DNA from: Cenococcum geophilum | Taxonomy: Eukaryota | Length of the DNA stretch: 64,000 nucleotides | Direction: 5' to 3' | Assembly (NCBI GenBank): GCA_050273025.1 | Contig: CP158635.1 | Span: 620,001-684,000 of the forward strand | Shown here: piece after piece, positions 9,001-27,899 of the stretch | Position numbering within the stretch: the stretch's first letter is position 1 | Layout of the letters: each line of letters begins with the position of its first letter | Notes under the pieces: model-generated | The model's database searches: none | What the model saw: only the letters and a program-made list of their open reading frames with translations | Told to the model about the DNA's origin: nothing | Position numbers and translations under genes: made by a program

Positions 9001-11286
9001 GCTTATTAGCTTTCTTCTATAAAAATACCTCTAGGCGGGTATAGTACTCTACTAGTACCTTTATAGTAGGGTTAGTATACTTCTTCAGTACTAAGGCCTT
9101 CTTAATATTAGCTATAGTAATAGCGAAGATTATATATTCGGATTTCTTAGCAAGTTACGCTAGCGGGATAGCTTTAATTAGACGGATATTTAAGGTGCCG
9201 AGCTTACTTAGATTATCTATAGTTTTATATTTAGGTTTAGGTTTAATATTAGGTATAGAGTTAGTATTAGATTTAGGTTTGGGTTTTTTAAGAATCCTTT
9301 TTATAGTAGAATACTAGTTCCCCTAGTATTTTTGTGTATTAAGCTTAAGCTTTTACTCAGCTTAGGGTAGTATAGTGCTTAGTAATAACTTATAGAATTT
9401 AGTAGAGTTTTCGGATCCTTAGTAGATATTAGTAGAAATTTTATATTAATAGAATTTAGTAGAATTCCTAGGTTAGTAAAATCTGGTAAATTCCTTAAAT
9501 ATAAGGTAGATATTAGTAAAAATCTTAGGCTAATAGATTTTAGTGGATTTCCTAAATTTTAGCTTAGGGTTAGGATAATATATTATAAGGCACTCCTACT
9601 TATAACGGGAGGCAGTTAATAAAAGCTTAAGGTTGTTTTAATTAATAGTTACCTTATATAGCTTTATCTAGGATTATTTAAGAATTACTAGGTAACCTAA
9701 GATAGTAAAAAAGAGCTTAATTAGTTCTTTATAGTTTAGGTATTAAAGTCTTAGGGCTACTATATAAGTAATACGGCCTAAAATAGTACGTTTACTATTA
9801 AATCTAAATACGTTAATATGCTGGTTAAAGGGGGTTAGGGTAAAACTATTATCTTATACAAAGATCTTATTAATAAATCCTATGCTGCTAGCTTCTATAT
9901 TAATTAGGATTTAAATATTAAACTCTTAACTATTCTGCCAGAGGCGGTAGTTAATAGTTATACTATAGTCTTAAGACTTAAAGTTTATAACGTTAAATAC
10001 GTTTAATAAGATTTTATAATAGAGCCGTCCTAAGGAGCGACTTAGCTCTAAAATTTTCCTTTTAAAGGTAATTAGGGCGGGGTTCTTATAAGACGTTAGT
10101 TAGATTTTCGTTCTTATAAATAGTACTTACTAAATAAAAGGCTGGAACTAGATAAGGAGGGCTATAATTAATAGCTTAAAGTTAGGCGCGATAAATAGTT
10201 CCTAATATTAGCTATTTGTAAATTATTTTAGGGTGTAGGTAAGGAGATAAGGTAGTATTTTAAGATATAGTCCTTACTTCCATACTTAAAGTAAAGGCTT
10301 AGCTTAATATATTTTTCTTATTTAGGGGACCCTAATAAGGTATACTCTAGGGTTCTAGTATTAATATTTATGGCATTAGGGTGCTTAGGCTAAGATAATA
10401 ACTTAATAAACGTTTATAGAGTTACTATATTATATTAGGGGGCGGGCTTTAGTATTAGGCGTAGTATATTATTATACTATTTATTAATAACGTTTACGTA
10501 TACATTAAGGGCTCTAACTAGGTCTATGCCTATTAGGGAGGGTTTTAGTTTAGGGCTTAAAAATTTAATAAGGCTGTTAACTAGTGCAGAGTCATTTTAG
10601 CTAGTCTCCCTTACGTAATAGTTAAATTCAGAGAAGTATACTAGGAAACTTTCCGTTCTTTAAGCTATATAGTTTATCTTTTTTAAGTAGTGGCTTAGCG
10701 GTTTGGGTTACTATATATAGCTTTAAGAAGTATAACTAGGCTTTATACTAAGTTCGGTTAGAGGGGTTTAATAAAATTAGCTATCTCTTCTCTTAGTTAA
10801 CTTAGGGCGTAACAGAGTTAGTTAGCTTTAGTTAGGTAATAGTTAGCGTTACTAGTTAGCTTATTCTTAAGCTAGCTTAGAAATAATTAGAGCTCTTACC
10901 GTTTACTAGTAAATACTAAAGGGTTAGGTAGCCGTTCAGATTATTATAGTATAGTAGTTAATTTAGGGTAGGCAGCTATTATAGGTTTAAGGCTTACGTT
11001 CTACGTATTTATCTTTAGGGATAGTATTTAGTCTTAAGGCCCTAATATAGACATCTTAAGTATACGGATTTCTTCTTAGAAGTCCTTAATTAATCACTAG
11101 TATCGTGCTTTTTATTCGGCTTATTATTAATTTAAAGTAGCTTAGTTTTATATAAGGGCGTCTATAAAAGACTTTTATATTTCTACTAGTTATTCTTAGA
11201 GTGCGGATATAATACTAGCAGCCGTTATAGGGGCTTTAGGGTCGTTCTATATTTTAGAGGTAGTATATAAAGTTAACGCAATATAG

Positions 11287-11666
11287 TATTACGGAGTAAG
11301 TATAAGCGGCAATAATATATAGCAAGGTAGATATTATTAAGCTATATATATAAACTATATAAGAAGTTAAGACGTTATATAAGGAAAGAAGGTAGGAAAA
11401 CGGGAAGAAAAGGGTATATATTGTGGACTTAGTTGCTTAGTTAATATATATATAGAGTAAGGTAGGATTTAGGTAGTAGTCCTAGCAAAACTTAATAGGA
11501 TTTAGTAGAACTTAGTAGAACTTAGTAAAATATAGCAGAATATAGTAAGCTGCTGTTAAATTGCCGTAGATTACTATTAGATTGCTATCTTATAGTTAGT
11601 CTCTAGTTACTAAGTTAGTAAAAATAGGTAGACGTATATAAGGTATTATAGGAGTATCCCGTAATA
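11287..11666 (-). repeat. Gypsy B 5' LTR (380 bp)
   Basis: Direct repeat of 5679-6057. Confidence 0.92.
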
Positions 11667-12408
11667 ATTAAGTACTATCCTTTATAAGGGTGACTTTTAT
11701 ATACACGGAACGGGCCTAGCTATTTTAGATCTAACTTATAACTACTAAAATAGTCTTACTTAAGCTATATATTATAGAGTATAACTATATCTTAAATCTT
11801 AAATCTATCCTAGCGAATATAATAGATAGTATTAAAATACTCCTTATTTACTACCCTTAGTCGTCTTATATACGCTATAGCCTTTTATATATCTACGTCT
11901 CTTTAGTTAAACTATATTATATAAAGTGCTAATAGCTTTATAGTAGTCCGGACCATTTACTAAGGTAGTATTTACTAAGTATATATATAGAGTTTAATAA
12001 AAAGGATATGCTTATACCCATATATAACTCTTACTAGCGTTATTTCTATAAATCGCTTAATAGTTATTTTATTAGCCTATAAGACGGTATAAAGATTATC
12101 TAGCTATAAGCTATCTATCTTCGCCAAAGCGTTTATTATAGGTATATAACCTCGCTCTATAAAGTCTTACTCCTATAGGTAATATACAAAAGCTATAACC
12201 CTTTTTATATTATAGGGCTCTACAAGCGTAGCGGTAATATTAGCATTCTCTTCTTTACTAACTATAGAGAGCTGTCTAAATACTCCCTATTAGTAAATAA
12301 CGTCTTTATAAAGGAACTTCGCTATACTTTTTATATCCTTATTTCTAAGGGCTTAAGTTTTTACCTATTTAAATATATATTCTTAAGTAATAGCTAAATA
12401 TTAGAATC

Positions 12409-12628
12409 TATAAGCTTTGCAATATAGGAAGAATTGCAAAAACAACTTAATTATAGATCTATGGAAATCAAGTAATATAAATATATAAGGAAGGTGTTGG
12501 TAATAAGATAAAAGGGGAGACTACTTTATAACTAAAACAGCGTAATATATAAGTGATACGCAGTTAATACGCAGTCGATACGTAGGTAATATATAGGCGT
12601 TCCGGCATAGTACCGGTAGTCGGTTACA
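12409..12628 (-). repeat. Copia C 3' LTR
   Basis: Direct repeat of 33267-33486; ends GGTTACA; adjacent PPT complement CACACCCCT. Confidence 0.92.
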
Positions 12629-14721
12629 CACACCCCTAGATTTAACAGTGCAGTTAAAGCTGTAGAAAAATGAAGGTCAAAACTATACCAACATAGGAAA
12701 TTTAGATACAATTTAAGAGTAGTAAAAGAATGGGGTAACCATAACGGATATTACAAATATCGCGGATATTGCGGATATTGCGAATCAATTGATCTAATGT
12801 TAAATATCCACCAAATTCAACTGCTTTATCCATACTTCATGCTTTTAACGAGGTAAGATTTTAGTAAGACCGTCGGCAGGCATTTTGGCCGTAGAAACCT
12901 ATTAAACGTTAATCTTTTTGTCTTAGACTTTCTGTATAAGCTAGTGCTAATAAACGTCGATATATTAAAGCTTAGTATCAGGTTTTGGTGTGTCCTGTCT
13001 TAATAGGCGTACGGTTTGCATATTATCGTATAGTAGGGTAAATTCGCGTTCTAAATTGAAGCCGACTGCCTTAAAGAATCGTTGCCACTAGATAATCTCA
13101 ATAGCAATAATAGATAGGGAGAGAAGTTCTGCTTTAGTAATTAATCGAGTTACTAATTGCTATAGGGTCGCCTTCCAATTAATTAGCCCTTTAAATAGCA
13201 TAAATAGGTATCCTTAAGAGCTCCGTCTAATCTCTTTATAATCCGTAAATACTATATTAAATGCTCTGTAAAAGGCGATGTCTTCTCCTTTAGGGTTTTT
13301 AAAGTAGATATATACTCTAAATACTTTACTAGAATATTTAATAGCTGTCAATTTTATTCTAAGGCAGTAGGTAATAGCTTAGTTTGCCGTATTAAGGTGC
13401 TTTTAATTTAAATTAGTAAGGAATTCGGCCAGTTTAGAATATATCTTAGCAATATTAGGTCTTCTATACGGTAAGGTATATAAGCAACCCTACTCGCTAC
13501 TAGTAGGCTAGTGTCCTTTAAGGGTTCGTCTGCTAGTTAGACGGAATTAGTTCTTTAGTAGGAAGTAATAACTTAGGAAATCTACCTAGTTAAATATTAA
13601 ATTAATTGGCTATCTTTTTAATATAGGAATCTTAGCAAAGCCAGAGCTTTTAACTTAGTCGATCTCGTTCGATTTAAATTCCTAGGAACTACTGTAGGTC
13701 TCCTAGTATATGGATCTCGTATTAGTATAGTAGTTTAGCTTCAAATTCTTTAAATCTTTAAAGGTCCTTTTTAGCAAATAGAACGGCGATATTGTCTACG
13801 TAGAAGAAGATAATAAGTCGTCCGTTAGTAAATAGGTAGTTAGTGCCTAGTACTAGTTTCAATCCAAATTTAGCTAAGGTACTAGTAAGCTCTTTATACT
13901 AAAGTAGTGGTGAGATTTTTAATCTATATAGCGCTATAAGTAGCTCTAGGACATGTTTATCTTATTTAAATCCTTTTAGGTAGTAGTAGTAAACTAGCTT
14001 ATTAAGCTTGGCGTTTATAAATACGTTTATAGCGTTATACTGTCGAATTTCCAAATTAAATGCAGCTGCTATAGCCATAAGTGCACGGAATATTCGAGCA
14101 GCTAGGGTTACTGCATAGGTCTCTTCTTCGGTAATCTATAAGTCTTCGCAGACACACAGTCTAGCTTTAAGCTTTTATAGGTAACCGTCGCTATTAGGCT
14201 TATATTTAAAGACCTATTTTAGTAAAAGGATCTGCTTATTGCTTACTTCTGCTTTTAGTACAGTCTTAAATATCCCTTAGCGCTTTAGGTCGTTATATTC
14301 TTTTTCTATAGCCTTTTAAAAGCTAGTAGTTAAAGGATACTTTCTTAGTTCTTTAAGGTTCTTTAGTTTAGGAGGAAGATTGTCCTAATATAGAGATAAG
14401 GATCTAGTTCGGTTAATGTCCTTTACTAGTCCTATAATAAATCTAGCGTAGTAACTAAATAGGGTAGATAGATTGGCTAGTGCTATCGCATACGCTTAAT
14501 ATTAAATTCGTTTAAATCCTTCTAATAGGATAAGGTTGGCAGAAGGTTTAGCTAAGACTTTATTAGCTCGTGGAGCTATATTAGTTACTCTATTAAATAG
14601 TTTTAGGGAACTTAGCTAGGTAGGAATTGCTTTAATTATATCTAGGATATCGTCTTAAAGTCCTTTTAGTGTAGTATTTGTTTCTAGTAGATTTAGAGAT
14701 GCCGTTCTACTAGGAGTTAGT

Positions 14722-14936
14722 TATAAGGGATATTATTATAAACACTTTAGGTTGCCCTTAGGACAACCCCCGGACGCCCCTTAAATAGTTGCCGGTTACG
14801 TGCCAGAGGCACGTGCCCGTAGTATATAGTCTCCACAATCCCAAAGGCCTTACCTCCTTAAGGATTTGTCTCTCTTACTAATCTATTTTATTCTAATCAT
14901 ATCCTTATAGCCCCCTGTCTATAAAATCCCCTTATA
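14722..14936 (+). repeat. Gypsy D 5' LTR
   Basis: Direct repeat of 30062-30276. Confidence 0.92.
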
Positions 14937-17900
14937 TTCAAATCCTTTTTACTTTTTTTTAGAAGGGTAGTTGGCTTTAAGGACCAGATTGTTTATTTAT
15001 ATCTTTTATTTATAACTACTATCCTCCCTTAAAATCTCGCGACGACCTAAACGGAAACTCTACGGATACCTTATAGAAAGCTGTCGCGTAAAGGCAGGAA
15101 GGTCCCTTTAATAGCGAGAGATTGCGATAATATAACCCTCTGAGTAAGATGGCCGAATAAGCCTTAATACCTAGATACTTTAAGAGCTTGAAGACTCTTA
15201 TATACCTATAGTTACTAGTAACACTAAGGAAAATATAAATACCCTCTATAATAGTTATAATACTACTAAAAAGTAGCTAGAACCCCTTTAGCCCTACCTA
15301 GGCTAATTAAAAGATTAAGCGCTAGAGGCAACTTTAAGATTTTCTCCTAAGCTAGAAATGCTAGAGGAATATACTAACGCGTTTAACTAGGGAACTAACT
15401 AGAACCCTCCCAGAAGACTACCGGCCTATAATTGGTATAGTAGCGGTATATAAACTGCTTATAAGCTAAGCAGGCCTACCCTTTTAGATAATTTAAGCTA
15501 ATTACTAACTTAAGACCTAAGCCCTGTTAGGAAGCCTATACTAGCTACTAGTACTAATACTACCTCTATAGTAGGAGCCTCCCTAGGCCCAAGTTTAGAA
15601 GGTTAAGAGCCCTATACCGATCTCCTTTAAGATAGATATTAGGAAGCTATTATAAGGCTCTCGGAAGCTATACGGGAGGAAGCTACTAATAAATATATTA
15701 GAACCCTTTAAGGGCAAATCTAGATCTAGTAGGGTCTAATCTAAGCTAGGTAAATTTTTTTATAACCTAGTTAAGGCTAAGGGCTTCTTAGGAGCTACTT
15801 AATACCTACCTAAGAAGGTATAGAAGACTTAGAGAGTTATCTACGCTATAAATAAAAAAAAGATATGGACTAACTGGCTAAGGCCTTTAGTAGTTTAGAA
15901 CTCCGCTATAGACCTAATGCCTAGTAGTTAGACGATTGGGTTTGTAAGGTAGATAACTTCTTTAAGATGCTAATGATATAAGATAATACTAAAGAGTGTA
16001 TACGCTAGATTATTAGCAAGATTAAAGACTAATTGCTAAACTAGATTATACTTAATTAGCTTAATAAAGAGTAAATTACTATATAGCTATAGCTGCAAAC
16101 CTTCCTAAAGAAATGAACTTAAAATCTGTATATCGTATAATATAATAATGCAGAGCTATTCTAGAATAAGATACAGCTAGACCGCTATAACTTCCGCTAG
16201 TTTATAAACTTTATAGAAACTTATACTTAGTAGATAGATTTAGAGCTCTTTAAAAATAAGGACGGTAGTATTTATAAGAAGGAGAAGATCGGGTTTATCT
16301 AGGCTAGAATTAAGCTAGTAATTTATAATAAAATAAAGCGCGTAGGAGCCCTATCGCGGATTACTATATATATAGATTTTAAACAAGCAGTTCTAAACGC
16401 TAAAGATATAGTAAGGAACTAGACCTCTTTTAGTAGGAAGCTAGGGGGTTACTAGAAGTGTAGGTACTCTAGTAGTAATATAGGGTAGACCTAACCTTTA
16501 AAGAAGCCGTTCTTAAAGAGAACTTTAGAAGGGTTAAAGTTAGGAACCTTAAATAATAGGAAAGACTTCTAGGGTTAACCTAATACCCATTTAGCACCTT
16601 TATAAAAACACTCCAAGAAGTTAAGAGAAAACTTTAGAGGTAGATTCTATTGGAAAAATAAGTAGGGTAATAACCGCACTAATAATCTAAAAAAAAGAAA
16701 AGCCCTAGTTATAGACCTTTTTTAGCTGCAACTAGGGCAAGATATAAAAGGAGAGACTCTCCGTATTGCTATTAAGCTAGAAATAACACTCCCTATAGGT
16801 GAGGTACGATAGTTCTAAGCACTATACAATAGCGGCGCCGAAATCAATCTTATATAATATAATTTGGTAAAAGAGTATAAACTTATCCTATTATAAAGGT
16901 AGCGGAAACCTATTATAGGCTTCCTAGATAAGCATTAGATTAAACTATATAGTGCCTATAAGCTTACAGTATTAGTGGCCGATATGTATAACCACACTAA
17001 GGTAGTCGGCCCGCAACCCTTCTAGGTAGCTGACTTTGTAGGTTATAACCTTATTCTTAGATACCCTTGGCTTATAAAAGTAGATCTTAAGATACGCTTT
17101 AAAACTAGAGCCTTTAAATAGTAGAACGATAAAGATTTGGAAGGGTGTATATTACTAATAAGCCTAAAGGATATTCTAGAGAATGTAGCCCTAGGTAAAA
17201 TAGTATACGCTCTATACCTAAAGGAGTATTAAACCTAACCTCTATTTAATAGTAAGATGGGTATAGAGCCTAGTATAGGTGATAACCCCTTTATAATAAA
17301 GACCCTATAGGGAACTACCGGATAGGTCGTAAAGATATTATAGGGAGGTAGCGATCTTAAGGATTTTATAAGATACTTTAACCGCTATAGGTTATTCTGG
17401 CTTAAGCAATATGCGGAGAGTATGCTATAGCACCTTAAACGCTGCGTTAAGGAGTTCCCTACCTTCTACTGGCTACCGCATAAAATGGTTTAACGTATAG
17501 TGGCAACTATATATAAGTAACTACTATAGCGCACAACGCTACCCGCGAGCATTCTAAGGGAGCTCTAGAATCTACCTAATAATGATACGGAGGATAAATG
17601 CGACCCTAATTTGTTAAATATTCTAGTAGGCCTAAGGGACTTACTAAGGGTATTTTTGGGTAGGAGAGCTAAAGTCCTACCGCAGAACTTGATATATAAT
17701 TATGTAATTAATCTAAAAGAAGGTAAACAACTGCCAAACTTTTTTATTTATAACCTCTCGCGCAAAGAGCTTAAGATCCTATGGGAGTACCTTAATAGGT
17801 TACTAGAAAAGGGGTAGATCCGGCCTAGTAAGTTACTGTTAGGCGCACCGATCCTCTTTATTCTAAAACTAGATGGAACTATAAGGCTATATGTAGACTA

Positions 17901-20594
17901 TTACGGTCTTAATAAGATTATAATTAAGAACCGTTACCCACTACTACTAGTTAGTAAAATGCTAGATTAACTATCTAGGGCAAAGATCTTTACAAAGCTA
18001 GATTTATAAGACGCCTACTATAGGCTCCGTATTAAAGAAGGGGATAAGTAGAATACCGCTTTTAAGACCTAATATAGCTACTTTAAGTATTTAGTAATGC
18101 CTTTTAGGCTAGCCAATGCGCCTGTAATATTCTAATTATATATTTACAGAGCCTTAGGGGGACTAGTTAACCGTATATATATTATCTATTTAGATAATAT
18201 CTTAATCTACTTAGAAGATAAGGATTAATACGAGTAACACGTCCGCGAAGTGCTGGAACGTTTAGATAATTAGGGCCTCTACGCTAAGGCGTTAAAGTAT
18301 ATCTTTAATATTAAGTAGGTCGAGTTCCTAGGTTATATTATAACGCCTATAGGTGTAGTTATGGACCTAGTATAGGTATAGATAATTTAGGAGTGGCCGG
18401 AGCTAGAGAGCTACTAGGATATTTAAGTATTCCTAAGCTTTGCCAATTTCTATAGGCGCTTTATCTATAACTACTTAGACGTTACCTAATACCTATCTAA
18501 CTATATTACGAAAGCTTCCCAAGACCTAACCTAAGGAGTAAAAAGCTTAAATGCGGTAAGGAAGAAAACTAAAAAGGGACTAACTAAATAGTATAAGCTA
18601 TAATTATGGCCCGGAAAGGTTTAAAAGGCCTTTTAGGAACTTCGCGTAAAGTTTATAAAAGCTCTATTACTACGGCATTTCAACCTAAATTAGCCATTAA
18701 TAATGATTAATAATGTATTAAATTTTGCCCTTATTAGTATCCTACTATAATCTAATAGGCATTTAGACACTACCTAGCTCTATTAGAGACTAATAGTATT
18801 TTATAGCAGAAAATTCTAGGGACCTAAAGTTAGGTATTATACCCACGATAAGGAACTGCTAGCTATAGTTAACTACTTTAAATAGTGGTGACACTACCTT
18901 AAGCACGTAAGCTATACCACTTATATACTTTTAGATTATTATAATCTACGCTACTTTATAACTATAAAGGAGCTTATACCTTAATAAGCTAGATAGGTAG
19001 AGGAGCTTACGTGATTTAATTTTAAGATTAAATATAAGCTAGGGGAAAACAACCCTACTAATAGACCGTTACGACGGCCAGACTATACTAAAGGCTTTAA
19101 AACGGGAGAAGGAAAATAGATAATAAATATCTTACTCCCTATATTGCAGAACAAGCTCTAGGTGTGGGATGCTTAAATACCTATAGCTCTATATACTAAG
19201 TCTTAGGTAGTATAAGCCCTATTAGTTTCTACTAACGTTTCGGCTAGTACCCGGTCTGTTGCCGATAAGGGTCCAAATATACCTAAATAGGACGTCCCTA
19301 ATATATTCTTAGAACCTAATAATATACTATCCCTAATTACTAAGCTATCCCCTTAAGCTAATAGTAAAGCTATAGAGTAATTGGAACTTGGAGCCCTATA
19401 ATAACTAAAGGACTTTAACCTTATAGCGGCCTTTCTAACGTACGCGCATTAAAGAGTTATAAGATCTATAGTACTATCTAGTCTTATACTTAGAGTAGTA
19501 TAGGACAAAATAGCTTTTACCCGGGAATTATCTAAAAGGTTAACGGATCTTATCCGTAAGGTATAATAGAGGGGCGCTTTTTATGCTATCCTTAATATAG
19601 AAGTAGACTAGAAACGTAACGAAAAGGAAGCTGCTAGGCGTTACTATTAGGAACTAGACCTAATAGGCCTACTATATAGAGGTAATAAGGTTTAGGTGCT
19701 ATAAAAAGCAAATCTATAATAGAAGATTCTTATAAAGAATTACGATAATCCTTTAGGCGGCTACTATAGTTAAGCAAAGATAGTGGAATTACTTTAGCGT
19801 AAATACTATTAGCTAAGGCTTAATTAGGAAGTAAAGGAGTATATTAGCTATTATAAGAAGTGTTAAGTATATAAGATCCGTAGGTATAAGCTATGGGGTC
19901 TACTTAAATTAGTTCCCCCCGCCAGTAAGCTATAGCGACATTACGCTATAAACTTTATTACGGATCTTCCGCTATTTAAAGATAGCTAAGGACGAATATA
20001 CAATTTAGTTCTTATACTTGTTAATAGGTTTTCAAAGTACGTCTAATACCTTCCCGTTAATAAGATGATTAATATATAAGAGCTTGCTAACCTAATTAAG
20101 GAAAAATGCTTTCTTAAAGTAGATTAGCTATACTCTATTATTACTAATAGGGGCAGCGTCTTTATAAGCCAATACTGGTCGGACCTATGCTTCTATTTAA
20201 AGATAGATTACTAGTATAATACGGCTTTTTACCTATAGACGGATAGGTAAACGGAACGCCAGAACTAGGAACTAGAGTCTTATCTATAGATATATTTAAA
20301 CTACTAGTAAGATAACTAGTATAAGCTACTTTTATATGCGGAGTACGCTTATAATTTAAAGTAATATATATTATATAAGTATGCACTAATCTAGATTGCC
20401 TATAGCGTTTAACTATTTGGGTTTAATGGCATACCTAATAATTACTGGCTAAGGCCGTATAATTAGTTATAGGATCCTACTGGGAAGTCTAAAGATATCT
20501 ACTAAAGAGTATAAGGATACCTCTAGGAATAGGAGGAGTAATAAAAGTATATAAAGTAGAGCCTATAAGATGCCTAAGAGTAGTAGAGACTTTA

Positions 20595-20797
20595 TGTTAG
20601 GCTATAGAGACGCACTAGCCGTAACCGGCTTAGCGTAGGCGAGGCGCAGGCGAGGCGCCTACAAAACGTAGTTGCCCCGTATTAGAGAACAATAGAATTC
20701 AGTTCTATAGTTCTACTTTATTAAGAACCAGATACTCTTTACATCCCGCTACTATTGTTATATTACTATATACCCTAAGGACCTCGGCGTCCTAACA
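20595..20797 (+). repeat. Gypsy E 5' LTR
   Basis: TGTTAGG...CCTAACA termini; direct repeat of 26978-27180. Confidence 0.93.
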
Positions 20798-23700
20798 GTA
20801 CTAAATTCTTATCCCTTTTTAGGGGTAGTGGCCCAACAATATAGTGGTCTGCTAAGGCTACGACTATATAGCAGCAACCCTCTGTTAAGAAGACGACCTG
20901 TATTTATTAACTATATCGCAGCCTATTGACCTAATGGCGAGACGCGGGCGTACTAGCGTAGTGCGTACTACTAAGACTAGGGATCAGCCCTAGGATAATA
21001 TAGGCGAACCTATATTGTCCTAGACAGAACTGGAAGCTATAGGTAAAGGGGATATATAGGAAGAAATATAACGGCTAGAGAACGAGAAGCTACAACTCCT
21101 AGAGTAAAGAAAACTATACTTACTTAGGGAAGAGGTGGAAGTACTAAGACGGCGTTAACGTGGTGAGGTGACGTTAACTCCCGTTCCTAACCTATCTTTA
21201 TAACCTTAAATAATCCTATTAGAGTACTTAGGGGGTAGCTTAATATATTTAAGTCTTAAGCGGAGGGCTACTAATATATTAGGCACTCTATTAAAACGGG
21301 CCGTTAAGATAAAGAAGATTGCTCTATATTATGGCAAGTCTATATAAGAGCACTAAGACTTCCGTAATAGCTTAAAGCTAGCGTTTCGCCTAAAGCGCGA
21401 TAGCTTTATAGATAAGGATACTAAGGTTGTGTTTACTATATAATATATAAAGGGGACTAACCAAACCCTTTGGCTATAGTATAAAGATAACTATCTAGAC
21501 ACGCAGTTTACCTAGGATGAGTTTATGGAATTCCTACTTAACTAGGTTAAAAGTCCTATTAATTAAGAACTCTATATAGCCTTAACCTATATAAAGGTAA
21601 TGTAGCGAACTGATTAACTAGTAAACGAGTTTACTGCTTACCTGACCTCCTTAAAAGCGCAAATTAACCCTCCTTATAATGTAAAGCATTTAATAATATA
21701 TCTGTTTGTGAAGCTGCGGCTAGAGCTATAGGTTGCTATTACTAACTATTAAGAATTCCCTTAAACTTAAGACTAGCTAGTTTCCCTAGCTGCCTTATTA
21801 GAGGAAAACTAGAAGAGCGCAAGCGCCCTATAGGGTAGAAGCAATAGGCGTGCCGTAAACTTGAATATAAAGACTACCTAGTTGGGTAACTTAGGGAAAG
21901 CGGACTCTAAAACCACCGTTAACGACTTAATGGCGGGGCGAAGCAATACCGCTGGGGGTTTGATTTAGCCTAAAGGAAACTGCTTAAGGTGTGGGCAGCT
22001 AGGATATTAGTGGCGATAATATAAAGAGCTGTAACGGAATTAACTACCGCTAAGCAGCGTAAACGCTACCTCTATACTAGGAAAAGATAAGCGCCTTTAG
22101 ACCTCCTTATAGCCGTAGGGTGTAAACTCCTACTAGATTATAAGGAAGCTATTACTATCTTAGGTAAAGTCCTTTTTAAGTAAATCTAGAAGGAGACCTT
22201 AGTAATACTTAATATCAGTGCTAAAGTAAATTTAATTAACTAGTGATTTGTAATGGAGTATAACTTTAAGATATTAGATGCAGAATTGCCTACCTACTCC
22301 TAGTTAAACAAAACTTAGGTATATTGCTATAAAGCCTATAAGGTACTATTACGAATAAAGGACAGCTGGGGTAGGATTAGGGAAGTAACCCTTATCTACT
22401 ATAGAATGGCTAATGTATTCCCCCCTATTACCCTAGGTATGCTAGGGTTAAAGAAGGCCTAGCTTCTTATTAACTGCGAGGCGAAGGCGTGGCAATGAAA
22501 GCTGGATGGCTTATCCCTATTGCTATAAACCCCTAAGGGTTTTATAAAGTCTCTCTAAAGGGAATCTAGGGTCTTCGCCCTAGTAATTACTGGATTAATG
22601 CCTAGTAAATAAGACGATGATAGCTTACTGGTCCTTCCCCTATAGTTAAAAGAAGCTAGCAATATCTTCTTATATAAGGAAGCAGGAAAGCTACCCCAAC
22701 ACTACTGGGGCGATTATACTATTGACCTAGAAGAGGGATAGGAGGTCCTGTATAGACCGCTTTATAACCTCTTAGTTAAGGAGCTAGAGGTACTAAGGGA
22801 GTACTTAGACGACGCCTTAGCTAAAGGCTAGATTTAACTAAGTACTAGTCCTATAGGGGCACCTGTCCTATTCGTACCTAAAAAAGATAAAAAGCTATGG
22901 CTTTGTGTAGACTATAAAGGCCTTAATAAGGTAACGATTAAGAATTGTCTTATACTACTATTAATTAGTAAGACCTTAGACCGCTTAGTAGGTTCTAAGA
23001 TCTTTACTAAGTTGGACCTAATAAATGCGTACTACCGCCTTTGTATCCATTGGGGCAATAAGTAAAAGATAGCGTTCCGCACGCGTTATAGCCACTTTAA
23101 GTATTTAGTTTTGCCTTTTGAGTTAATTAACGGACTAGTAACCTTTTAGGGCTATATTAATTAAGCCTTGTTAGGACTAGTAGACGTCTTCTATATAGTC
23201 TACCTTAATAATATTCTAATTTTCTTGGAAAATTTAGAGGAACACTGGTGCCACGTACTAGAAGTGCTACGTAGGTTGTGGTAATATTAACTATATACAA
23301 ACCTTAAGAAGTGCAGGTTTGGCGTATAAGAGGTTAAGTTCCTAGAATATATTATTAGTCCTAAAGGCGTAGCGATAAATCCTAGCCAGGTAGAAGCCAT
23401 TACTAAGTAAAAGAGCCCCCGATCCTATAGGGATATCTAGGTCTTTCTAGGTTTTGCTAACTTCTATTACTGGTTTATTTATAATTACTCTACTATTACG
23501 AAGCCTATTACTAATCTCCTTAAGGGAGTAAAAAACGGCCGTAAAGCTAGGCCTTTTAGTTAGCCAGAAGAGGCGGAGTAGGCAATACGCCAGCTCTATA
23601 ACGCCTTTATGACGGCGCCGCTCCTACGATACTATACGCTAGGCTTACTAACCTAGTTAAAGACTAATGCCTCTATATAAGGCCTAGTAGCAATTATATT

Positions 23701-25915
23701 ATAGCTGTTTAAAGATAACCTTTAGTATCTAATAGCTTTCTAGTCTAGGAAGCTTTCGCTAGTAGAGCGTAATTATAAGACTTATAATTAGGAGCTACTA
23801 GCTATTATAGAGGCTTTTAAGTATTGGAGATACTATATTAAGGGGCTATTAAGCCGCCTAAAAGTGCTTACAGATTATAATAATCTAAAGGGTTTTATAA
23901 AGTAAAAGCCCTTAATGGACGGCAAGCTGGATGGGCTATAGCATTAGCTGCCTATAACTTTATAATTAAGTATAGGGCGGGAAAAACGAACCCTGTAGAC
24001 GCGCCGTTAAGGCAACCCCTAGGCGTAGGGGGTCCGCTAGAAGAAGATACTATGCTACTACTGCTCTAAAGGACTTTAGGAATATAGGGCCACTAACCTA
24101 AGGTAAAAGTCCTATTAGGTATATAAGAAAGCGAGCCTTCTATAGAGGTATTATTTCTACGGCTATAAGCCGGCGACCTAACGGCGGTATGCCTGGGCTA
24201 TATAGCATTATAGTTTAACTAGGCAACCTATATATATACCGTCAAGCAGCATATAATAAGGACCTAAGTTAGAGAAGCTAGTACTTAAGAGAGTGCTTAT
24301 AAGTCTAGTACAGAAACCGTTGTTAAGCTTATTAAAGGACTCTAAACCAAAGATAACTTTGTACTGCAAAGGCGTAGCGACAGTATAGATACTGCGAGAC
24401 GCCGTTAACGCGCCCGCTTAAAGCCAGTATAGTAGTTTAATTCCGCTAGACTACTTTATTACCGCGGGAGGTTATATATACCCCTAAACCTAGCAGTTTG
24501 TATAAAACTCCTACAGATCCACCACAATAATGCCCTAGCTGGCCACTTCGGTAAGAAAAAGACCCTAGATTTACTCTTGCGTAAGTACTACTAGCCTAAT
24601 ATAACTGCGGACATTATAAACTATATCTCTACCTATAATCTATACCAGCGTATACATGCGCCTTAATATTACCCTTATAGCGAGCTCTAAGCGCTACCTT
24701 ACCCAGATTAGCCGTGGCAGGAGATTATAATAGATTTTATTATAGGCCTACCGCCTAGCAGACGAGGCGATAAGGTGTATAACGTAATATATGTAATAGT
24801 TAACCGCTATATAAAGATGGCCTTGTATCTGCCTATAGTAAAAACTATTACTATAACTAAACTTGCGGATCTCTTCCTTAATAAAGTAGTACGCCGTTTT
24901 AGAGCCCCTAGAGGGATTATATCTAATTATAGTAGTATCTTTACTAGTAAGTTCTAGTCGGAGCTATGCTTTGCTATAAAGATTAAACGTAGGCTAAGTA
25001 TAGCCTTTTGCCCGTAAATAGACGGGCAAATAGAACGCTAGAACTAAACCTTAGAGTATTACCTCCGTGTGTTCTATAACAAAAAGCAAAGCAACTAGGT
25101 AGGCCTCTTATTACTAGCCAAATTCGCCTATAATAATACTAAATATAGCATAACGGGTATAAGTCCGTTCTATACCTACTATAAGTTTTACCTACATCTA
25201 GAATATAAGGTCTAGGCAAACGATAATAGTTCTATTCTAGCCGCCTTTAAGAGGATTAAGAGAATATCCCTTAAACATAAAGCGCTAGCGAAACGCTAGG
25301 AGCATGCCGCCGAGGCGTAAGCGAAATACTACGATTGTTATTATTAACTATAGGTATATAAAGTAGGGGATTTAGTCTTACTATCGACTAAGAACCTTAA
25401 ACTAAAAAGGCTAAGTAAGAAACTTATAGTACGCTTTATTAGACCTTTTAGTATAGCCGAACTAGTTAGAAAGTAAGTATACTAACTATATCTACCTATA
25501 TCTTACTATATCCACCTAGTGTTCTATATTAGCTTACTAGAGCTATATAAATAATATAAGGGCACTACTAGAGACCCTTTATTAGGGCCTATTAAGCTAA
25601 ACGATTAAGCGGACTAAGAGGATTAATATGAGGTAGAAGAAGTATATAGAAGGAAGGGACGTAACTAGACCCTATAGTACCTAATTAAGTGGAAAAACTA
25701 GCTAGAAGAGTATAACAAATGGGTCCTAGTAAAGGACATTAATAAGGACGCAAAGGAGACGTATAATAGTTACTTTACCCTAAGGGGCAAACGGAAAAGA
25801 AAGTAGGTAAGAGAATAAAAAACTTTTAATTGGAACTGGGAGTACGCCCTACCAATAGGGCGACAACGGAACGACGGCGGAGCGACGGCAGTACGCTAAT
25901 AGAAATACAGAAACT

Positions 25916-26730
25916 CTACAGCTCTAACGAATCCTCCCTCTCCTCCCCTCCTTCCTCTTCCTCCTCCTCTCCCTCCTTATCCTCCTCCCCCTCCTCCTTA
26001 TCCTCCTTACTCTTATCCTCCTCCTTATTCCTTATAATAGGAGGCATATTAGCCTATAGGTACTATTAGCATACGCTATAACGGCGAAACATCTATGCTA
26101 TAATACGTACTAAAGCGCGCATTATGTTAAGAATTCCTTTAAGAGTATAACGGATAGCCTATAATTCCTGCACTTAAAGTAGAGGAAAGTCTTCGCCCTT
26201 TAGGCGCTAGCGGAAACCATACTTAGCGCCAGTGCGTACTAAGGCCTTAATATCCTTCGTAAAGGACTTCTAGATGGCAGTAACGCGAGCGTTAAGGTTA
26301 GCTATATCTCCGCTAGTAACTTACTAGCGCTTAGCCCTATTAATAAGGGCGAGTAGCTTATTTAGGCGGCTATAAAAGGCCTTAGGGACCTAGTCTATTA
26401 GCTATTAGAACCTAAACTAACGCACTTAGACTTACTAGTTAGCACAACTTATTTAGTTATTAGCAGTACCCGCAATTGCGGTTGGCCTACTTACCGTAGG
26501 TGGCCCGCTTAGTGGTAGCTATACGCTTAGCGCAGTAAAGGCAGATTGGTTCTAGCAAGGCTAAGGGGGCGGCTTATAAGCGGCGTGGGAGCTTTAACGG
26601 CGTTTAGTAGGGTTAGTAACAGCTATAAGCTAGTATAAAGAATACTTATAAAAGGTTCCCTAGCAGGCAGACCAATAGCTTAGCGCTTACAATTTATAGT
26701 TAATTAGAAGTCGTAAAAAAGGCGAGTTAT
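25916..26730 (-). pseudogene. Antisense spliced accessory gene of Gypsy E (six-Cys Zn-cluster-like N-terminus, acidic tail), RIP-mutated
   Basis: The minus strand reads EPICLxCAKRIATTKRAT(C)GK(Q)ANRNCGYC(QQ)LNKLC, then an intron at 26390-26435, a helical exon, an intron at 26054-26110 and an E/D/G-rich tail to a stop at 25916. The start is uncertain. Confidence 0.7.
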
Positions 26731-26977
26731 AGGCTAAATAAATTAAAATAGAATTAGAAGGGAAATCTAATGTCCTACCTGGGTAGAAACTCTTACCTTT
26801 ATAGATCTCTACAAGGTCCTATTGTTATATTATTCTATTATTATATTGTCCTATTATTACATTATCTAATTTACTTAAATTTATTAAAAACTTTTTATTT
26901 AGAGAAGGGCAATAATAGCACTCCTACTGTATAATAGCGTCGGCTAAGGACAGCCGCTTAAGAAGGGGGGGGGCAAT

Positions 26978-27180
26978 TATTAGGCTATAGAGACGCACTG
27001 GCCGTAACCAGCTTAGCGCAGGCGAGGCGTAGGCGAGGCGCCTATAAAACGTAGTCGCCCTATATTAGAGAATAATAGAATTTAGTTCTATAGTTCTACT
27101 TTATTAAGAACCAGATACTCTTTATATCCCGCTACTATTGTTATATTACTACATGCCCTAAGGACCTCGGCGTCCTAATA
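26978..27180 (+). repeat. Gypsy E 3' LTR
   Basis: Direct repeat of 20595-20797. Confidence 0.93.
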
Positions 27181-27899
27181 GTACTAAAGTAGAGCCTATA
27201 AGATGCCTAAGAGCAGTAAAGACTTTAGTATAACCGTAAGTACTAAAATAAGTATTTTGGAGTAGGCGATAAGGTTTTATTATATTTAACAAATATTAAA
27301 ACCTATTAACTATTAAAGAAGCTTAATATAAGATACCTAGGTCCCTTCTAAGTTAAGGAACGAATTAGTAAGCTAGCCTATTATCTCTAGCTATCCCTAT
27401 CTATAGCCTATATATATTTAGTGTTTTATATAAACCTACTAGAGCTATAGCATAGACTACTACCGGAAAAGAACTTCTGTCTAGGCCTAATTAAACACCC
27501 TAAGGTAGTAGGCGAGCGATATAAGGTTAAAGCTATATTATACTATAAGTTTATTAAGAACAAGCTTTAATTTAAAGTTAAATGGCTAGGCTAGCCCGCT
27601 AAGGACTCTATATAGGAACTAGAGGATTACCTTAATTATTATAAAGATATTCTAAAAGAATATTGGGACTAAGGTCTATAATTTATAAGTCGCAGAAAGC
27701 GCTTTAATACTATAGTGTCATTACGACCTATAAAGAAAGCTCGCGAAAAGAGTAAATAGGTTAAATTGAATATAGAATAAATAGGCTCCGGAAACTATAG
27801 GGAAAGGGCTACGGCCTAAGGCAGGATAGGTCCTTAGCCTTTTTACGTATATAGCATAAAGTTAATAGGGCATTTTACTAGAATTATATTCCTATTTAT

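Follow-up and report, generated by a model that had tools for sequence, protein, structure and literature searches.

A four-exon antisense gene between pol and the 3′ long terminal repeat of an Ascomycete Ty3/gypsy chromovirus, wrecked in its Cenococcum geophilum copy

Does the DNA between pol and the 3′ long terminal repeat (LTR) of a decayed retrotransposon in Cenococcum geophilum hold a gene of its own on the opposite strand, and if so, what did that gene do for the element? The segment lies at positions 25916–26730 of a 64,000-nucleotide stretch of contig CP158635.1 (assembly GCA_050273025.1, positions 620,001–684,000 of the forward strand), hereafter the window, whose numbering is used throughout. 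An earlier description made from these letters only, hereafter the sequence-only reading, proposed that a gypsy element, labelled Gypsy E, carries here an antisense, intron-containing gene of zinc-cluster type. Sister copies of the element establish, at the level of sequence, that the segment is a genuine accessory gene of a Ty3/gypsy chromovirus family, antisense to gag-pol. The whole explanation that we favour, with a probability of about 0.5, is that the window holds a copy of this gene killed by repeat-induced point mutation (RIP) and that the product of the gene would have been a small nuclear zinc-binding regulator of the element.

The gene in the window and its intact sister copy

The minus strand from 25916 to 26697 is a RIP-wrecked copy of a four-exon gene with three short phase-0 introns, located between the chromodomain (ending near 25767) and the polypurine tract (from 26960) and facing gag-pol. 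Its parts can be followed by alignment to L048, a metagenomic sister copy in which the gene is intact. Exon 1 (26650–26697, minus strand, as are all parts of the gene) consists of 16 codons for a basic N-terminus and aligns to L048 9684–9731; its ATG is now ATA and it contains one stop. Intron 1 (26604–26649, 46 nt) aligns to L048 9732–9777, which reads GTAAGT..GCTAAC..TAG, and in the window its donor has become ATAAGT and its acceptor TAA. Exon 2 (26436–26603), encoding a basic stretch and a module of six cysteines (Cys), has five stops, and its third Cys codon is now TAC (26498–26496). Intron 2 (26390–26435, 46 nt, GTAAGT..GCTAAT..TAG) is intact, and its junction is confirmed by a homologue, P0010, in which the flanking coding parts are contiguous. 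Exon 3 (26111–26389), a helical domain of 93 codons aligned to L048 9992–10270, lies in the frame predicted by removal of intron 2 and is interrupted by six TAA or TAG stops. Intron 3 (26054–26110, 57 nt, GTACGT..GCTAAT..TAG) is likewise intact, and exon 4 (25916–26053, aligned to L048 10328–10450) encodes an acidic tail rich in E, D and K that ends in a TAG stop at 25918–25916.

Much of this had been seen without the sister copies. The antisense pattern C-x2-C-x11-(C)-x7-C-x2-C-x6-C of the sequence-only reading is present in the minus-strand frame starting at 26798, with Y in place of the third Cys, and the two introns it placed at 26390–26435 and 26054–26110 are introns 2 and 3 of the L048 gene. 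Its gene model held for these two introns, the helical exon and the acidic tail, and missed the upstream exon (26697–26650) with the intron that follows it (26649–26604). Its count of five intact Cys describes the pattern correctly but passes over 12 in-frame TAA or TAG stops in exons 1–3, three of them within the Cys motif. Read without splicing, the three minus-strand frames contain 21–35 stops per 294 codons. Because of the 12 in-frame stops, the window copy taken by itself gives no evidence of an open reading frame (ORF), and the gene in this copy is unable to make protein. The damage has a signature: of the 116 sites at which the window and L048 differ in exons 1–3, 100 are C>T or G>A. 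The intron signals stand out from chance, with four matches to a donor/branch/acceptor pattern on the minus strand of the 1.1-kb segment (overlapping, at least two of them independent). In 2000 first-order Markov simulations the average was 0.08 matches, and two or more occurred with P = 0.005; the whole 64 kb, both strands, holds 10.

Scanning metagenome contigs with the protein P0006 gave 70 loci, all 70 of which match the window element at the DNA level. The whole gene is found in 52 of them, always at the same place, the remaining loci being cut short or fragmented, so the proposal of an antisense, intron-containing gene belonging to the retrotransposon stands. In 44 of the 70 loci, the LTR, the gene and the chromodomain follow one another without a break, as arranged in the window, and 34 have a second LTR downstream, which in 28 of these lies 6.34–6.47 kb away. 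Fifty-three copies matching over at least 900 nt were aligned with the window, and the codon and splice-site counts given below cover these 54 sequences. The extracted copies are 71–89% identical to the window and have a GC content of 0.35–0.57.

In one of the 54, L048 (GC 0.57, TpA/ApT 1.02), the gene is fully open. It spans 9684–10450, is undamaged and starts with ATG. Its exons measure 48, 168, 279 and 123 nt and its phase-0 introns 46, 46 and 57 nt, the latter beginning with GTAAGT, GTAAGT and GTACGT and each containing a GCTAAC branch and a TAG acceptor. The spliced ORF of 618 nt has no internal stop and encodes 205 residues, which answers the search for an open spliced frame among family copies that the sequence-only reading had suggested. 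Introns that lie antisense to the genomic RNA of a retroelement are never spliced from the template, and the introns of this gene would have survived retrotransposition because of that orientation, being inherited through reverse transcription.

RIP has treated the parts of individual copies unequally. RIP-state sites make up 9% in the gene region of L048 (9684–10450), as opposed to 28–40% in its own gag-pol (10701–15560). The pattern is reversed in another copy, L002, with 30% in the gene and 6–9% in gag-pol. This contrast probably reflects patchy RIP, and L048 could still be a retained copy. We considered L048 as a domesticated copy; that RIP spared its gene was not taken as evidence, given the reversal in L002. 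Two further copies from a divergent subfamily, L010 and L058, come from two different samples and have lost intron 1 through a deletion of 55 nt (the 46-nt intron plus 9 nt, L048 9729–9783), which fuses exons 1 and 2 in frame.

Constraint across the family

How the copies vary shows which features were kept. The six Cys codons in 54 copies make 324 cells, of which 173 are TGY (Y being C or T), 148 are TAY, the G>A product of RIP, and three are something else; TGY or TAY thus occupies 321 of the 324 cells, in agreement with the six conserved Cys that the sequence-only reading expected of its gene. All six Cys are retained in four copies. The third Cys codon, which the same reading took to be a TGC turned into TAC by RIP, is TGY in 21 copies and TAY in 33, and it is TGC in L048; this distribution confirms the assumption. 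The start codon is ATG in 13 copies and ATA in 41. Among 162 splice donors, 129 are GT, 30 AT and three gapped, and among as many acceptors, 147 are AG, 13 AA and two gapped; all departures are RIP-type changes or belong to one shared deletion. Exons 1–3 keep their length in 48 of the 54 copies and contain no insertion column; the 260 nt upstream have 159. Exon 4 varies in length, in multiples of three in all but two copies.

Selection was measured on transversions, which RIP does not make. In exons 1–3, columns variable by transversion fall on the first, second and third codon positions in the ratio 17:7:32 (chi-square p = 2e-4), and those seen in at least two copies in the ratio 6:3:16 (p = 0.004), whereas the same split of the upstream control gives 42:32:38 (p = 0.5). 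Such columns number 56 of 495 in the exons and 151 of 331 in the flanks (Fisher p = 1e-28), with 28 of 149 in the introns. The two least-damaged copies, L048 and L001, differ by 26 synonymous and 18 non-synonymous codons; with about three times more non-synonymous sites, this corresponds by our own estimate to a rough ratio of non-synonymous to synonymous rates (dN/dS) of a quarter, in line with the coding constraint that had been proposed as a check. Together these patterns indicate that the gene was kept under purifying selection at the protein level while the family diversified. The sequence-only reading had named stops or frameshifts in a consensus, unconserved Cys or splice sites, and absence of the segment from sister copies as grounds for giving it up, and none of these occurred.

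A second open frame overlaps the gene. On the sense strand of the element, L048 9988–10311 is open for 107 codons under exon 3, with which it shares wobble positions. Were this the coding frame, second codon positions would be more variable than first (17 versus 7). It comes without start, splice logic or homologues, and we interpret it as a shadow frame arising from a GC-rich gene.

The product and what it may have done

The L048 product has four parts. A basic N-terminus is followed by a six-Cys module (C-x2-C-x11-C-x7-C-x2-C-x6-C), then by about 93 residues of helical domain in which the motifs PKG and EGILDVMR are conserved, and last by an acidic tail of 40–50 residues. The tail, mostly E and D with K added after RIP, is kept in every copy.

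A phmmer search of 1.84 billion representatives with exon 3 of the window, stops being read as Q, found eight proteins with E down to 1e-22; a word-indexed protein search with the same RIPped exon gave no match. Four of the eight are near-identical metagenome ORF fragments with 67–88% identity, three (P0009, P0010 and P0011) are distant, with 32–34% identity over the whole exon, and P0008, a protein of 585 residues, matches query residues 52–75 only. In the distant homologues, the helical domain has near-invariant N, LL, A, R, K and G, an invariant P and the motif G-I-L-D-V-x-R. A profile search extended the set to 45 proteins, nearly all metagenome fragments. The sole named one is P0010, a hypothetical protein of 174 residues from Zopfia rhizophila CBS 207.26, annotated on a 272-kb contig; relatives of P0010 were not found among viral contigs. 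RIP hides such genes and repeat masking strips them from proteomes, which may explain why just one protein is named. A hidden Markov model (HMM) built from the homologues matches the window at 26395–26093 (E 2.6e-31) and finds no second helical-domain match in the six-frame translation of the 64 kb.

The homologues also bear on the exon–intron structure. P0010 reads C-x2-C-x10-C-x8-C-x2-C-x6-C and, two residues further on, the start 'VP..F...N.LL' seen in exon 3, so that its Cys module and helical domain are contiguous exactly at the predicted junction of exons 2 and 3. In P0010, P0032 and P0047, the last Cys runs straight into the helical domain, and intron 2 would therefore be absent or differently placed there. 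Each of the eight homologues that reach far enough has a V two residues past the conserved R, a position that corresponds in L048 to the GT of the intron 3 donor; this V fits a conserved donor that ORF callers read through. P0032 continues in frame into an acidic stretch.

The protein belongs to a family without previous description in a mostly open-access literature, where searches did not find a published account. The resemblance that first suggests itself is to the fungal Zn2Cys6 domain, to which the sequence-only reading had likened the product. The canonical spacing is C-x2-C-x6-C-x5-12-C-x2-C-x6-8-C. Six invariant Cys are present, in the family as TGY or TAY and also in P0010. The first loop, and only that loop, is out of range, with 11 residues in L048 and 10 in P0010 as opposed to six. 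Because the canonical spacing fails there, we do not file the family under Zn2Cys6, membership of which is not supported, although the protein may work in a similar way. The observation made by the sequence-only reading is thus confirmed and extended, and its interpretation is partly supported.

From its layout, the product is a candidate for a small nuclear zinc-binding protein that would bind DNA or chromatin and regulate the element's own expression or silencing, a proposal to which we assign somewhat less than even odds. Transcription would presumably start at the element's 3′ end and proceed toward pol. A basic stretch, a Cys module of zinc type, a helical domain and an acidic effector tail would together make up the layout of small nuclear regulators, and such a regulator might act on its own element as an activator or as an anti-silencing factor. 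More tentatively, an Ascomycete chromovirus lineage may have its own protein resembling a transcription factor, with a non-canonical six-Cys module, which, acting on the LTR or on the surrounding heterochromatin, would turn the element on or protect it from silencing, and whose relatives (P0010 and unnamed Ascomycota clusters) may be domesticated by the host. We regard this wider scenario as possible, with the odds clearly against it.

Several observations weigh against a nuclear regulator of the element. No Pfam family, including Zn_clus (PF00172) and DUF3716 (PF12511), matched the intact exons, the homologues or the read-through frames of the window at E up to 10. A solved relative was not found by sequence in the PDB, with 0 matches for the Cys exon and a best E of 0.13 for the helical profile (Vps38, followed by ribosomal S20), which we took as noise. 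AlphaFold models are poor, with a predicted local distance difference test (pLDDT) score of 51.4 for the Cys exon and 55.0 for P0010. For the Cys exon, the ESM Atlas gives as neighbours only Ascomycota proteins that are unnamed and below threshold, with no Zn_clus cluster among them. No active element was seen among the sampled copies, and gag-pol of L048 has no ORF of at least 150 residues. Conservation is poor in the 260 nt before the ATG (transversion columns 0.43, numerous insertions and deletions), so a conserved promoter is not evident. P0009, P0010, P0011, P0032, P0037, P0047 and P0052 may be host genes. Finally, zinc binding, DNA binding, nuclear localisation, dimerisation and an effect on the element are all putative activities, and proposing them is a guess.

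For what they are worth at low confidence, the AlphaFold models suggest three long helices, with short strands around the Cys residues. The homodimer prediction for the helical exon scored 0.02, which is not evidence either way. ESM Atlas neighbours of P0010 are unnamed Ascomycota clusters, the best scoring 0.93 (157 members). For the Cys exon, one cluster with a score of 0.78 has DUF3716 in 28% of its members, which is a lead only. DUF3716 is a Cys-containing domain of fungal proteins, some of them borne by transposons such as REP9 of Zymoseptoria tritici, according to the available part of PMC8232023. The likeness lies in small, Cys-containing, transposon-associated Ascomycete proteins without an assigned function; as opposed to the window family, however, REP9 is a class II element, and the PF12511 profile is one that the family does not match.

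Other readings share much of this evidence. An unlikely one, which stays close to the regulator, is that the product was a chromatin- or histone-binding cofactor whose acidic tail bound histones or the integrase/chromodomain complex, aiding integration targeting or countering silencing. The long E/D tail in every copy would suit this role, as would its length steps of three, the chromodomain carried by chromovirus integrase and the lack of a recognised DNA-binding family. Trinucleotide slippage in GAG/GAT repeats alone could produce the same steps, however, and the Cys module and basic stretches suit nucleic-acid binding equally well.

That the gene is instead a captured host gene, a passenger of no use to the element whose conservation stems from recent capture or from selection on host copies, seems to us distinctly improbable. 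Distant homologues do exist, among them the one annotated on the 272-kb Zopfia contig, introns suggest a cellular ancestry, and in L048 the gene is intact although pol is dead. But every one of the 52 loci spanning the region (52/52) carries the gene at the same place, the codon-position bias and the absence of insertions and deletions arose during diversification into subfamilies 71–89% identical, and the frame-preserving loss of intron 1 spread to at least two copies. The sparing of L048 by RIP is offset by the opposite pattern in L002 and fits patchy RIP.

A true Gal4-type member of the Zn(II)2Cys6 family (PF00172), dimerising through a coiled coil on CGG-type sites in the LTR and activating transcription through the acidic tail, would be the most familiar form of regulator, and we consider it improbable to a high degree. 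The likeness is real: six conserved Cys arranged as C-x2-C...C-x2-C-x6-C, of which the C-x2-C-x6-C half and the loop of 7–8 residues before it are canonical, K or R residues after the second Cys, and further along a helical domain followed by an acidic tail. Atlas structure neighbours of P0010 even include Zn_clus clusters, but with TM scores of 0.23–0.34, below the bar. Against it stand the first loop of 10–11 residues instead of six, the failure of PF00172 to match the intact Cys exon, P0010 or the window frames even at E up to 10, the short strands rather than two short helices around the Cys in the low-confidence P0010 model, and the want of a Zn_clus cluster among the named Atlas neighbours of the Cys exon.

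It is more doubtful still that the antisense transcript itself is what matters, with control at the RNA level (through double-stranded or small RNAs, for example, or by disturbing the genomic RNA at its 3′ end) and the protein secondary. Transcription from both sides across the 3′ end of pol would give RNA complementary to the genomic RNA, and retrotransposon-derived small RNAs are prominent in Botrytis in the available text of PMC8365987. The third-position bias (with the second position most constrained), the conserved Cys codons, the in-frame insertions and deletions and the conserved splice sites nevertheless show selection on the protein; the two roles, RNA and protein, are mutually compatible. 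Chance, by which the Cys spacing and intron-like signals would be accidents of RIP-mutated non-coding DNA, is refuted and keeps next to no probability: every frame of the window copy is filled with stops and TA-rich RIP products do create GTAAGT, CTAA and TAG, but L048 has an intact spliced ORF, the window's own exon finds homologues, Cys codons and splice sites are conserved, codon periodicity is present and the intron-like patterns far exceed the simulated expectation.

The host element and related antisense genes

The gene resides in an element of which the window contains one copy. The 5′ LTR (20595–20805, plus strand, with a TG start at 20595 read from the sequence) pairs with the 3′ LTR (26978–27188, plus strand), and direct alignment of 20597–20805 with 26980–27188 gives 93% identity. 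Between them lies gag-pol (20806–25860, plus strand), RIP-degraded and interrupted by stops in all three frames. It ends in a chromodomain at about 25627–25767 (plus strand), recognised by the Pfam Chromo profile in 25501–25860 with stops read through (E 2e-6, 28 bits, cutoff 25.1). The polypurine tract, AAGAA followed by nine G (26960–26973, plus strand, the nine G at 26965–26973), was read from the sequence and stands directly 5′ of the 3′ LTR. In the sister copy L001, the strand opposite the accessory gene encodes RVT_1, RT_RNaseH, SH3_Tf2-1 and Chromo in that order. From the LTR pair, the polypurine tract, the chromodomain and this domain order in L001, the element is a Ty3/gypsy chromovirus, as had been proposed from the sequence.

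Up to about 47 kb, the window has 27–42% GC with frequent TAA and TAG stops in all frames, as expected of RIP; at about 47–48 kb, this AT-rich landscape gives way to 45–58% GC. In public DNA runs, the accessory-gene segment occurs in thousands of contigs, at a depth similar to that of pol, and the gene was accordingly once part of a very successful family. Differences in one of these runs, X1, fall on 287 transition places versus 14 transversion places. Three X1 reads extending beyond 27188 carry the sequence that follows the 5′ LTR.

The flanks and LTRs show some peculiarities. Upstream of the 5′ LTR, about 52 nt at 20542–20594 are 91% identical to 27176–27227, a match that begins 13 nt inside the LTR end and far exceeds the normal length of a target-site duplication. 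DNA runs show LTR-like depth past 27188, so that this flank may be part of a different repeat or reflect a rearrangement. Within each LTR, GGCGAGGCG-like units form a tandem pair, at about 27018–27042 in the 3′ LTR and at 20635–20659 in the 5′ LTR. A few RNA reads of run X21 stack on the LTR in both orientations, and the pair of units may serve as a regulatory site. This single RNA run gave 16 reads, 14 of them fitting partly, with none 95% alike and no joints, and can inform neither expression nor splicing.

LTR retrotransposons rarely carry accessory genes, and those that exist are poorly understood. The present family is a compact example, with an exact exon–intron structure, a natural intact copy in L048, purifying selection and a domain layout from which zinc binding, nuclear localisation and LTR binding follow as testable hypotheses. 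It also carries a warning for annotation, as RIP can hide such accessory genes completely.

HBZ of human T-cell leukaemia virus type 1 (HTLV-1) is an antisense, spliced, nuclear factor of the basic leucine zipper (bZIP) class, transcribed from the 3′ LTR. The window gene would be a functional analogue of it, lying on the minus strand at the 3′ end and encoding, through spliced exons, a small protein that resembles a regulator and combines an effector region with a helical domain. The two share no homology, HBZ has a bZIP instead of a Cys module and belongs to a vertebrate retrovirus, and activity of the window gene as a regulator is putative. If the regulator proposal is true, the gene would be a fungal counterpart of the antisense regulators of retroviruses.

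Plants offer a match in layout. The available text of PMC7264820 describes additional antisense ORFs between pol and the 3′ LTR, termed aORF-3R, in maize Grande1, rice RIRE2, Silene Retand and Phaseolus PvRetro13, and in the same text antisense accessory ORFs have no known function in plants or fungi. Like the window gene, these share one position and orientation, occur in most copies of their families and are conserved like the other genes of the element, with function unassigned. The features by which aORF-3R are recognised are all found here: a coding strand opposite gag-pol, a position between pol and the 3′ LTR, presence in most copies and conservation as coding sequence. As opposed to the window element, the plant elements are of Tat/Retand type and not chromoviruses, no sequence relation is known, and the product here is a small protein in which a six-Cys module precedes a helical domain and an acidic tail.

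A further parallel is fungal. Boty of Botrytis cinerea and Sclerotinia sclerotiorum carries an antisense gene, brtn, between pol and the 3′ LTR, as given in the accessible passages of PMC7264820 and likewise cited in those of PMC8365987 and PMC4227169; the last adds that Boty-like elements have a gag-pol with a CHROMO domain. The sequence-only reading knew of no characterised fungal chromovirus example, and this statement does not hold in the face of brtn. A Botrytis or Sclerotinia protein is not among the 45 profile matches, which says little because brtn is missing from the current B05.10 annotation in the passages seen of PMC8365987. The comparison is one of layout, drawn from the descriptions in these citing papers: in both cases, an Ascomycete Ty3/gypsy element with a gag-pol ending in CHROMO has an extra antisense gene between pol and the 3′ LTR. 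The layout is thus not new for fungi, an antisense gene in the same position being known from Boty, and the family described here is a well-documented addition to the antisense accessory genes of retrotransposons.

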